DNA of 64,000 bases, taken from contig DATEMU010000015.1 in assembly GCA_035275405.1 (NCBI GenBank), positions 737,768 through 801,767 of the forward strand. The letters run 5' to 3'. The position numbers and the translations under genes are program-made. The notes below the pieces were generated by a model that saw nothing but the letters and a program-made list of their open reading frames with translations, ran no database searches and was not told where the DNA came from. This document shows, piece by piece, positions 38,501-40,673 of the stretch. Numbering within the stretch: the stretch's first letter is position 1; each line of letters begins with the position of its first letter. This DNA comes from Phycisphaerae bacterium. GTDB taxonomy: Bacteria; Planctomycetota; Phycisphaerae; UBA1845; UTPLA1.

Positions 38501-40673
38501 CAGCGTCGAAGCCGATTGAGTTGGCGAGGGCGACCAACATCGCACGGAGGAGCGGTCGTTTGTCTACGGCGTCCCAACCCGCGATCGCGCCCGACAGGAT
38601 CGACTCACCGGGTTTGACGATGACGGCCTGGTCGCTGGTGCCGCGCTGGACGCCCAGTCCTTCGCAACGCGAACACCAGCCGAGACGGGAGTTGAAACTG
38701 AAATGGTGCGGCGTCAGTTCGTCGTAGCTGGTGCCGCACTTTTCGCAGGAGAGGTGTTGCGAGAACCGCAGTTCTTGTTTTCGCGTGCCGTCGCTCTCGC
38801 CCGCGACGACCATGACGCCCTGGCCCAGCGCCAGGCAATGCTCCACCGATTCCGCAATGCGGCCGCGCGACTTGGCGCTTACGACAATGCGATCGACGAC
38901 GAGTTCGACGGTATGGCGCCGTTTGGCGTCGATTCGCGCATTATCAGTCAGCTCGACGATCTCCCCGTCGATGCGGGCGCGGATGTAGCCCTGCGACTTG
39001 CTTCGAGCGAGCAGCGCGGGCCAGGTTTCGCCCTGTGCAGGCTCCACAGGGGCGCAGAGCGACCAGCGCGAGCCTTCGCCCGTCGCCATGACGCGGTCCA
39101 CGATTTCGTCGCTGGTCTGCGTGCCGATCCGCAGATTGCACTTCGGGCAATGGGGCTCGCCGACGCGCGCCCAGAGGACGCGCATGTAGTCGTAGATCTC
39201 GGTGACCGTGCCGACCGTCGAGCGCGGGCTCTTGCTGGCCGCCTGCTGCTCGATGGCGATGGCGGGCGAAAGGCCGTGAACGTGATCGACCTTGGGCTTC
39301 TGCAACTGGCCGAGGAACTGGCGGGCGTATGCCGAGAGGGACTCGACGTAGCGGCGCTGGCCTTCGGTATAGACGGTGTCGATGGCGAAGCTCGTCTTGC
39401 CGCTGCCGGAGACGCCGGAGCAGACGGTCATGGCGCCGCGCGGAATGGAGACGGTGATGTCCTTCAGGTTGTGTTCTTTTGCGCCGACGACGGTGATAGC
39501 AGGAATGTCGAATGGCGAAGAGCGAATAGCGAAATGCTGCGACCGCTTCCGTTTTTCGCTATTCGCTATTCGCCATTCGCTATTGCGCTTTTTTTTGACT
39601 TTGCCCGACCCATTTCCGAGCACCGCGCGGAGGGACTGCCCCGTGTAGGAATTGTCGCACGCCGCGACTTGTTCCGGCGTGCCTTCCGCGACGATGTATC
39701 CGCCCGCTTCGCCACCTTCGGGGCCGAGGTCGATGATCCAGTCGGCGGTCTTGATGACGTCGAGGTTGTGTTCGACGACGAGGACGGTGTTGCCGACGTC
39801 GACGAAGCCGTGCAGGACCGCGAGCAGGCGGCGGATGTCCTCGAAGTGCAGGCCGGTGGTGGGCTCGTCGAGGAGGTAAAGCGTGCGGCCGGTCGAGCGT
39901 TTCACCAATTCGCGGGCGAGTTTGATCCGCTGCGCCTCTCCGCCGGAGAGTGTCGTGCTGGATTGGCCGAGCTTGAGGTAGTCGAGCCCCACGTCGTGCA
40001 GCGTCGCGAGCATCGTGCGAACCTTCGGGATCGGCTCGAAGTGCGCGAGGGCCTGCTGCACGTCCATTTCGAGCACGTCGTGGATGCTATTGCCCTTGTA
40101 GAGGATTTGCAGCGTCTCGCGGTTGAAGCGCTTGCCCTGACAGACGGGGCATTGCACCCAGACGTCGGCGAGGAAATCCATCTCCACGCGATTCGCGCCA
40201 TTGCCCTCGCAGGCCTCGCAGCGACCGCCTGCCTTTTCGCCGCTGGGGACGTTGAAGGAGAAGCGACCGGGGGCATAGCCGCGGACCTTGCTGTCCGGCA
40301 GCTTGGCGTAGAGGTCGCGAATCTCGTCGAAGAGCTTGATGTAGGTCGCGGGGTTGCTCCGCGGCGTGCGGCCGATGGGCGACTGGTCGATGTCGATGAC
40401 TTTGTCGAGATGCTCGGTCCCGTCGATGCGGTCGTGCGCGCCGGGCTGCGCGATCTCGGCTTCGTTCAACTCTACGACGAGTTTTTCGCGAAGGATGTCG
40501 TTGACGAGCGAACTCTTGCCGCTGCCCGAGACGCCGGTGATGCAGACGAAGCGGCCGAGGGGGATGGAGACATCGATGTTCTTGAGGTTGTTGTGGCGCG
40601 CGCCGAGGACAGTGAGCCAATCCTGACGGGGCACTTTCAGTGAAGTTGGGGCTACGATTGAAGCACGGACCAT
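35523..40673 (-). CDS. UvrA C-terminal half (ABC module II) fused in frame to a complete UvrA paralog plus ~400-aa C-terminal domain of unknown function
   Basis: N-terminus [16 protein letters not shown]...[11 protein letters not shown]...[12 protein letters not shown]...SYTGQSL matches the canonical UvrA C-half. After the linker comes a full UvrA ([17 protein letters not shown]...[12 protein letters not shown]...SLTGQYLSG...[12 protein letters not shown]...SHTGRLL), then ~395 aa of unknown sequence. Start taken at the internal Met MVRASIV, just after the upstream ORF stop. Confidence 0.65.
39501..39597. repeat. AT-rich imperfect palindrome plus T8 run inside the UvrA fusion ORF (linker between UvrA modules)
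   Basis: Arms gaatggcgaagagcgaatagcgaaa / tttcgctattcgctattcgccattc (~24 bp, 1 mismatch) with a 17-nt loop, then gcgcttttttttgac; translated as low-complexity [29 protein letters not shown]. Confidence 0.6.

Follow-up and report, generated by a model that had tools for sequence, protein, structure and literature searches.

A heptamer-built palindrome translated in frame at the junction of a planctomycete tandem UvrA protein

Heptamers are over-represented among the long simple-sequence repeats of prokaryotes (PMC4692102, PMC4679880), and in Xanthomonas 70-75 convergent inverted pairs of GGGAATC arrays have been described (PMC4692102; PMC4679880). Palindromic elements read in frame within genes are also known (PMC10969869). 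In quasi-palindromes, template switching copies one arm from the other and so homogenises and expands the arms of an inverted repeat (PMC7202029, PMC13100816). Here we describe an element that belongs to these known kinds, being at once a heptameric repeat inverted pair, an in-frame palindromic element and a quasi-palindrome, and that lies inside a fused uvrA gene of a Phycisphaerae bacterium. The DNA analysed, termed the window, is a stretch of 64,000 nucleotides (assembly GCA_035275405.1, contig DATEMU010000015.1, positions 737,768 to 801,767). The element forms a hairpin at the junction of two UvrA-like units of a single polypeptide. We consider it, with only moderate confidence, to be a self-homogenising quasi-palindrome of simple-sequence origin that is tolerated in the permissive tether of an old fusion.

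The hairpin occupies window positions 39504-39584 as an inverted repeat with 31-nt arms that are 90% complementary and a loop of 19 nt; a preliminary description of this DNA had seen an imperfect repeat with arms of about 24 bp, and the repeat is thus present but larger. In the sense of the mRNA, which is read from the minus strand, the 5' arm (39554-39584) is composed of AATAGCG, AATGGCG, AATAGCG and AATAGCG and encodes 10 residues, the loop (39535-39553) encodes part of the peptide KRKRSQ, and the 3' arm (39504-39534), composed of TTTCGCT, ATTCGCT, CTTCGCC, ATTCGAC and a final ATT, encodes another 10 residues. The repeat unit is the heptamer CGAATNN, and Tandem Repeats Finder reports a period of 7 on both sides, as TTCGCTA in 4.9 copies (39555-39589) and CGAATAG in 3.6 copies (39509-39533). 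At least three tandem 7-nt copies are therefore present, and the two nearby arrays are inverted and able to form a stem-loop. The heptamer repeats of Xanthomonas and Nostoc are intergenic in location, whereas this element lies inside an open reading frame (ORF) of 1716 aa and is read through as coding sequence. Its GC content is 0.48, compared with about 0.64 in the flanks. The AT-richness, the short direct repeats and the run of eight Ts on the plus strand (39589-39596) that had been noted earlier were all found again, and the segment translates exactly to the low-complexity peptide then given, from the minus strand and in one uninterrupted frame.

The predicted structure is unusually stable. 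In the mRNA sense a segment of 116 nt folds with -44.8 kcal/mol (z = -4.9; 0 of 200 shuffles are as stable), the DNA fold of the hairpin has -32.4 kcal/mol (z = -5.9), and the core stem comprises 11+14 bp. No longer or better inverted repeat exists in the 64-kb window. A 26-nt arm pattern, for which 0.00 chance matches are expected in the window, found the hairpin itself as its sole match, and no second copy was detected there by searches with the exact arm at 3 mismatches, a 12-mer, or a pattern of three CGAA units. A scan of positions 39000-40100 against Rfam 15 at E <= 1 gave no family at its gathering threshold; the best matches were sub-threshold microRNA precursor hairpins (29 bits against a threshold of 64), meaning that the element resembles a generic long hairpin.

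The host gene (35523-40673, minus strand) is a single uninterrupted open frame, and its product carries three Pfam ABC_tran matches together with UvrA_inter and UvrA_DNA-bind, that is, the ABC ATPase halves and the UvrB-interaction and DNA-binding insertion domains of UvrA. As the preliminary description had it, the units on both sides of the hairpin are UvrA-like: residues 1-358 share 60% identity with NBD-II, the second ATPase half, of the full UvrA unit downstream, so that the 1716-aa protein consists of a UvrA second-ATPase half (NBD-II'), a tether, a complete UvrA and a C-terminal extension. The extension, which comprises the last ~435 residues (35523-36830, minus strand), has no Pfam match, and its length is conserved in Phycisphaerae homologs. 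The junction segment matches UvrA chains in the PDB with E = 1e-73. In this mapping the residues before the tether align to UvrA 909-961 of a 962-residue chain and those after it align from UvrA position 17-22 onward; the tether thus leads from the very C-terminus of the first UvrA unit to the N-terminus of the second, at the position where two tandem uvrA genes would have a stop codon, a spacer and a start codon. Approximately 35 residues between the mapped units are without a structural counterpart in solved UvrA proteins, and the hairpin encodes most of them; the coding DNA of the tether as a whole (~35-38 aa) spans 39486-39599 on the minus strand. The peptide has a bipartite basic pattern, KKKR-(10 aa)-KRKR.

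Alignment of the top 45 homologs from a protein search shows that the tether is unconstrained and free to vary: it is present at the junction in 45 of 45, is hypervariable and K/R-rich (basic), and is usually 30-60 aa long. The K/R-rich tethers of all the homologs may provide non-specific DNA affinity. UvrA works as a dimer, and structures such as 2r6f appear among the PDB matches. A tandem fusion is therefore, in effect, a dimer held together by a tether, and this would account for a linker that runs free. The first UvrA unit is itself split, since its N-terminal half is a gene of its own upstream (41457-43385, minus strand; 642 aa, Pfam UvrA_inter and UvrA_DNA-bind) and its C-terminal half forms the N-terminus of the fused gene; between the two lies a 187-aa ORF with no Pfam match (40679-41242, minus strand). 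Seven relatives share this split layout (L001-L003 and L204-L207, the L-numbers denoting loci of homologs). The Gemmataceae homologs, of about 2300 aa, have the appearance of UvrA-UvrA tandems without a split.

The fusion is real and old, and the gene is intact. The protein search listed 120 homologs of 1650-2400 aa, most of them covering 94-100% of the query, and the same junction is present in over 100 homologs within Planctomycetota, whose range runs from Phycisphaerae to Gemmataceae. A scan of metagenomes with the junction peptide recovered 10 junction-spanning loci, all at <=65% identity, the rest being ordinary UvrA genes. The sequence of the hairpin, by comparison, is common only to the 86%-identical ortholog L001 (GCA_964414585.1), and its register only to relatives at 72-73% identity. 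Since the junction occurs in more than 100 homologs but the hairpin only in near relatives, the fusion must be much older than the palindrome, and the palindrome cannot have created it, as had been proposed when the segment was taken for an intergenic element that had come into frame between two separate genes.

A homopolymer error that falsely fused two genes was another early concern, as some platforms make errors in runs of A8/T8 and the sequence comes from a metagenome-assembled genome; a fold-back chimera is a further conceivable artefact. We consider either kind of artefact exceedingly improbable. The independent genome L001 has the same hairpin with AGAAAAAGG in place of A8, and retains the same frame on both sides and an identical stretch of 11 residues; moreover, all homologs are fused. 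A version of the window with A7 would stop at residue 368 (...KKSAIANGE*) and one with A9 at residue 364, and either would leave the downstream UvrA unit without a start. The fused protein is also 100% identical to P0001, from a Phycisphaerae metagenome-assembled genome, and ENA contig k141_73519 is identical over 7151 nt, although this second record may stem from the same reads.

The position of the tether, precisely where one UvrA unit gives way to another, and its AT-rich, intergenic-looking DNA would also suit a relic of an intergenic terminator or spacer whose read-through made the fusion. On the plus strand, hairpin and T8 follow each other in the shape of a terminator, and this part of the preliminary description stands. 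However, no U-run follows the stem in the mRNA sense, so that a terminator role is possible only on antisense (plus-strand) transcripts; there the stem is A+T-rich, and arms of 31 bp with a loop of 19 nt are atypical for intrinsic terminators. The T8 is absent in L001 and L002, a consensus scan for terminators and promoters over 35000-44000 did not call the element, its counts being at shuffle level, and T-runs are rare beside similar hairpins elsewhere (see below). With a fusion that spans Planctomycetota classes and a hairpin sequence found in one ortholog, either a relic or an antisense terminator seems to us highly improbable.

To place the hairpin in context, the tether DNA was compared in a close set of eight genes (67-100% identity), the window included, and in more distant fused homologs. 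The CGAATAG hairpin of the window has z = -4.3 in this comparison (-3.9 to -4.3 depending on the segment folded). L001 carries the same hairpin in decayed form (z = -0.9), and L002 a hairpin built of another heptamer, GAATTGA (z = -3.5). Three tandem arrays without a hairpin are present in L003 (GAGGGGCC, GAAACGTC/GAAAAGTC and AATCCAA; z = +0.1), an octamer array of CGAAACGT in seven copies with G+C-rich hairpins in L206 (z = -2.7), and four copies of CGCAATC in L207 (z = -0.9). L204 and L205 have no repeats (z = -1.0 and +0.1), and L205 has a 9-bp stem at the corresponding place. Among the distant homologs, L126 has a strong palindrome that is not built of repeats (z = -6.0) and L133 a GGGAGAA/CCCCTTT hairpin (z = -3.4); nothing comparable was found in the tethers of L124, L125, L127, L128, L129, L130, L131 and L132. 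Arrays of 7-8 nt or repeat-built hairpins, with differing units, thus occur at this site in the window, L001, L002, L003, L206, L207 and L133, which marks this DNA as a hotspot, in these relatives, for hairpins and for repeats of 7-8 nt. In the same eight genes, two other variable linkers gave z values of only -1.8 to +2.0. On the other hand, no significant hairpin was found in L001 (decayed), L003, L204, L207, L124, L125, L127, L128 or L131, and with so many fused homologs lacking one, the gene family evidently does not require the structure.

The arrays appear to have arisen where they now lie. The tether is 49, 49, 48, 49 and 46 aa long in the window, L001, L002, L204 and L205, respectively, and is thus of the same length with or without a repeat hairpin. 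At the DNA level, the alignment across the hairpin is free of gaps in 4 of the 5 genomes; L205 has a gap of 9 nt in the loop and none in the arms. The occupied site is therefore not longer than the empty orthologous sites, and the equal lengths and gap-free arms argue against a simple insertion. The window and L002, whose units differ, share flanks on both sides (AAAAAGCGCAAT on one side, CATTCC on the other), and in L204 and L205, the sisters of L002, the non-repeat sequence CTCAATTCTCC (AQFS) is similar to the L002 unit ATTCTCA. These observations favour slippage of a local heptamer, followed by inverted copying, over simple insertion.

The register of the hairpin has been kept while its sequence changed. 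When the stem of the window is placed on the alignment of the five genomes, 75.6% of the cells pair, compared with 31-41% when the partners are slid by 1-3 columns. Both sides are changed in 17 of 32 stem pairs, cells with a double change number 27, where the slid controls have 3-8, and values as high as these came up in 0 of 500 shuffles. This shows that the hairpin register has persisted by compensatory change across five genomes whose proteins are 72-100% identical.

Similar hairpins are found outside the tether. The L001 locus contains four CGAATNN hairpins in 25 kb, all with the design (CGAATNN)x3-4, loop, (NNATTCG)x3-4, in contrast to one in the 64 kb of the window. Besides the one in the uvrA tether, they include an intergenic hairpin with the unit AATAGCG, one at a gene boundary and one inside a FAD-binding gene (the three are at L001 positions 6083-6167, 19550-19633 and 20167-20245), and a further CGAATNN hairpin lies on a second contig of the same genome (L033, 5653-5712). 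Between the L001 copies the variable positions differ; within each copy they remain complementary. The spacer between the APS-kinase and PALP genes in the window (44531-44629), which is orthologous to the site of the intergenic L001 hairpin, has no hairpin. This pair of spacers was considered as a test of insertion, but their lengths are similar (115 nt in L001, 99 nt in the window) and do not settle insertion versus origin in place. The L003 locus contains many 7-8-nt tandem arrays, both intergenic and inside its two uvrA genes (3514-3842, 7613-7691, 10313-10357 and 12003-12032); its N-half product is 738 aa long, as against ~642, and an MmeI-type restriction-modification gene is inserted upstream.

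We also searched GTDB, with one genome per species, for CGAANNNCGAANNNCGAA followed, after a gap of 10-40 nt, by TTCGNNNTTCGNNNTTCG. At least 120 loci were found, whereas we estimate that chance would give ~0.1, and every one of them folds into a long stem. They span Planctomycetota, Acidobacteriota, Verrucomicrobiota, Chloroflexota, Bacteroidota, candidate-phyla-radiation bacteria and others. What recurs in these hairpins across phyla is an unchanging CGAA(T) core together with 2-3 positions that vary yet remain complementary between the arms. Among the matches listed, 21 of 122 hairpins lie in long open frames, compared with 52% of random positions, and the hairpins are thus mostly intergenic; in-gene cases confirmed by Pfam include a Ser/Thr kinase domain (L121) and an HrpB helicase (L045). 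The likeness to intergenic elements that the preliminary description had remarked on is borne out to this extent, with the intergenic CGAATNN hairpins of L001 as its nearest instance, but the absence of any gain in length argues against the simple insertion that such a likeness might imply. T-runs flank only 8 and 13 of the 122 hairpins listed (control 3.5%), so most of them are not classical terminators, and adjacency to T-runs was rejected as a feature of the hairpin family. The literature searched contains nothing on CGAAT-type heptamer hairpins, on translated copies of them, or on translated palindromes in planctomycete UvrA.

The dispersal of CGAATNN hairpins in the L001 genome, in an intergenic region, in the FAD-binding gene and on a second contig, might point to a mobile palindromic element, similar to a MITE (miniature inverted-repeat transposable element) or a REP (repetitive extragenic palindrome), that inserted in the tether and was tolerated in frame as the Rickettsia palindromic elements are. 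We think this rather improbable. Apart from the equal tether lengths and the arms without a gap relative to repeat-free sisters, neither a target-site duplication nor terminal inverted repeats distinct from the arrays were noticed at the hairpin, and the element is present in a single copy in the 64-kb window. Copies that differ at the variable positions and are yet self-complementary fit local homogenisation better than copying from a master element.

Both alternative frames are closed within the hairpin (frame 2 reads ...KKAQ*), and the coding frame alone is open through the element. In one heptamer TGG replaces the TAG that the consensus would place in frame, and the opposite arm carries GCC, which pairs with it; clearly, selection has kept the frame open through the hairpin. 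The run of eight As followed by G (39588-39596, minus strand), which forms the T8 on the other strand, is read in frame as AAA AAA AAG, and the mRNA at the site is GUC AAA AAA AAG CGC AAU AGC. The zero frame thus presents the heptamer A AAA AAG (39594-39588, minus strand), followed by an 8-nt spacer, CGCAAUAG, and then the stem; in the -1 frame, which continues GCG CAA UAG, a stop lies two codons beyond the heptamer (39580-39582, minus strand). The only other 8-base A/T homopolymer in the window is an A8 run at 3675-3682.

This arrangement matches the slippery sequence and downstream hairpin of Escherichia coli dnaX (PMC5389563): the slippery heptamer is in the zero frame, a stable structure begins 8 nt downstream, where 5-9 nt are expected of such sites, and a -1 stop is present. 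The possibility thus arises of a -1 frameshift at A AAA AAG stimulated by the stem, or of slippage of RNA polymerase on A8. The products would end in ...KKKAQ* after a -1 shift or an added A, or as in the A7 version after a lost A, and free NBD-II' would be made beside the full fusion. The only in-frame A AAA AAG among the 15 long ORFs of the window adjoins the strongest hairpin of the window, and L002 has the non-canonical G AAA AAG with a spacer of 5-6 nt, a stem and a UGA in the -1 frame. However, site and stimulator are not conserved in orthologs: L001 has AGA AAA AGG, and L204 and L205 have no slippery site but have kept the stem register. The A-run also encodes a conserved basic patch (KKKR, RKKR), and as AAA makes up 28-40% of the Lys codons here, AAA AAA AAG is not an improbable way to encode it. 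Because the heptamer contains TAG, both other frames are bound to stop early, so the short -1 product carries little weight, and no upstream stimulator resembling a Shine-Dalgarno (SD) sequence was noted. Recoding of this type seems to us as improbable as a terminator relic.

A stem selected as such, in the mRNA or in the DNA, is the most serious competitor, although we regard it as unlikely. It might pause the ribosome and so give the first module time to fold, or to assemble with the separate N-half, before the homologous second module emerges, or it might be a site for RNase III-type processing or stability that tunes the expression of this giant protein. Stem-loops in mRNA are known to pause ribosomes (PMC7282821, PMC8861025). 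Several observations speak for a selected structure and weigh against our own reading of the element as a tolerated quasi-palindrome. Strong hairpins of unrelated sequence recur at the junction in five separate lineages (the window, L002, L126, L133 and L206), with none in the control linkers, and this recurrence could mean selection for structure; the control linkers are, however, more conserved in protein and so are imperfect neutral controls. The strong same-register covariation among the five genomes is equally to be expected from selection on an RNA stem. The 5' arm (39554-39587) is 100% identical over ~34 nt to L001 11098-11131, in genes whose DNA is ~85% identical overall, which hints at constraint; in the 3' arm 5 of 33 positions differ. 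Our own reading has the further weakness that an origin in place is deduced from equal lengths and sequence resemblance rather than observed.

Against selection on the stem, about half of the fused homologs examined are without significant structure, among them the nearest relative, L001. Covariation is expected from quasi-palindrome template switching as well, and no conserved sequence or flanking signal was found. When raw folding energy was ranked over 100-nt windows in each gene, the tether came 9th of 512 in the window gene and was average in 4 of the 8 close genes; these genes are G+C-rich, and the ranking is not discriminating.

We therefore return to a quasi-palindrome of simple-sequence origin, lodged in DNA that codes for a disordered, basic linker, as the explanation we prefer. 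The arrays would have arisen in place by replication slippage of a local heptamer, and the complementarity of the arms would be maintained by intramolecular template switching rather than by a dedicated function. Selection would do no more than keep the frame open, as with TGG for TAG, and the peptide basic and flexible. The ribosome would simply unwind the stem, any pause being a side effect. A bolder proposal is that the hairpin is a selected recoding or pausing device placed at the seam, either dnaX-like or one of a set of recurrent planctomycete hairpins that time the translation of two 60%-identical modules. We believe this to be very improbable; if it were true, a dnaX-like device in this genome would yield two products, the full fusion and a free NBD-II' (...KKKAQ*), the latter being able to pair with the separate N-half.

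If the preferred explanation is correct, the DNA at the seam of an old fusion is translated and yet behaves as non-coding DNA does, gathering the same heptamer repeats and hairpins as the intergenic DNA of these bacteria. For annotation, this would mean that low-complexity peptides encoded by palindromes in the large proteins of planctomycetes should not be taken for frameshift errors or pseudogenes. The case may also be useful for studying the concerted evolution of quasi-palindromes, and the hairpins with a CGAA-core heptamer found across phyla deserve a survey of their own. Should the structure instead prove to be selected, for a pause, for processing or for a frameshift, it would be a rare bacterial mRNA stem that controls the production of a multi-module repair protein.

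Some other features of the window were recorded. Between the uvrA fusion and a fumarase gene lie a 76-aa ORF and a PemK-family toxin gene (34866-35433, minus strand), which are absent from this place in L001. A tRNA-Met gene (48226-48298, minus strand) is 100% identical over 76 nt to L001 2323-2398. A coding repeat with a period of 48 nt (19580-19777; 4.1 copies, 73% match) has a consensus that encodes a Cys/Asp-rich motif.

The 'class III' UvrA of Xanthomonas carries more than one UvrA ATPase unit per polypeptide. The protein described here differs from such enlarged or duplicated forms of UvrA in that its first unit is split, with the N-half encoded separately upstream, and in the 435-aa Pfam-less extension that follows the second unit. 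Among repeats, the closest counterparts of the hairpin are the GGGAATC inverted pairs of Xanthomonas and the STRR heptanucleotide repeats of cyanobacteria. They too consist of tandem 7-nt units, repeated from a few to about twelve times, and two such arrays often converge so that a stem-loop can form (PMC4692102). In these families the type of repeat is preserved among related genomes while length and sequence drift, and no function has been established (PMC4692102). They are G-rich and prone to form quadruplexes, or have other units, and are described as intergenic, whereas the uvrA hairpin is built of CGAATNN and is carried, as translated sequence, by a repair gene of an essential type. The palindromic elements of Rickettsia (RPEs) and intragenic MITEs are likewise palindromic and are found in frame in housekeeping genes, at permissive sites (PMC10969869). 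RPEs, however, form conserved families of ~150 bp and lengthen the host protein; the uvrA hairpin has in common with its relatives a heptamer core only, adds no length, and has a periodicity of 7 nt.

In quasi-palindrome hotspots imperfect arms are likewise made complementary by template switching, which gives the appearance of compensatory change without selection (PMC7202029, PMC13100816). Such hotspots are known from reporter genes and promoters; the literature searched contained no case of one that is long-lived and translated as part of a protein tether. The dnaX signal of E. coli likewise combines a zero-frame A AAA AAG with a stable stem-loop that follows after a short spacer, and the -1 stop falls in that spacer (PMC5389563). 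In contrast to dnaX, the uvrA site is not conserved in the nearest ortholog, its stem is far longer (~30 bp), and an upstream SD-like element was not noted. The tandem repeats of Borgs are likewise fast-evolving repeats within ORFs that encode low-complexity, disordered peptides (PMC9879509); the uvrA unit differs from them in being 7 nt long, which is not a multiple of 3, and in having its arrays arranged as an inverted pair.

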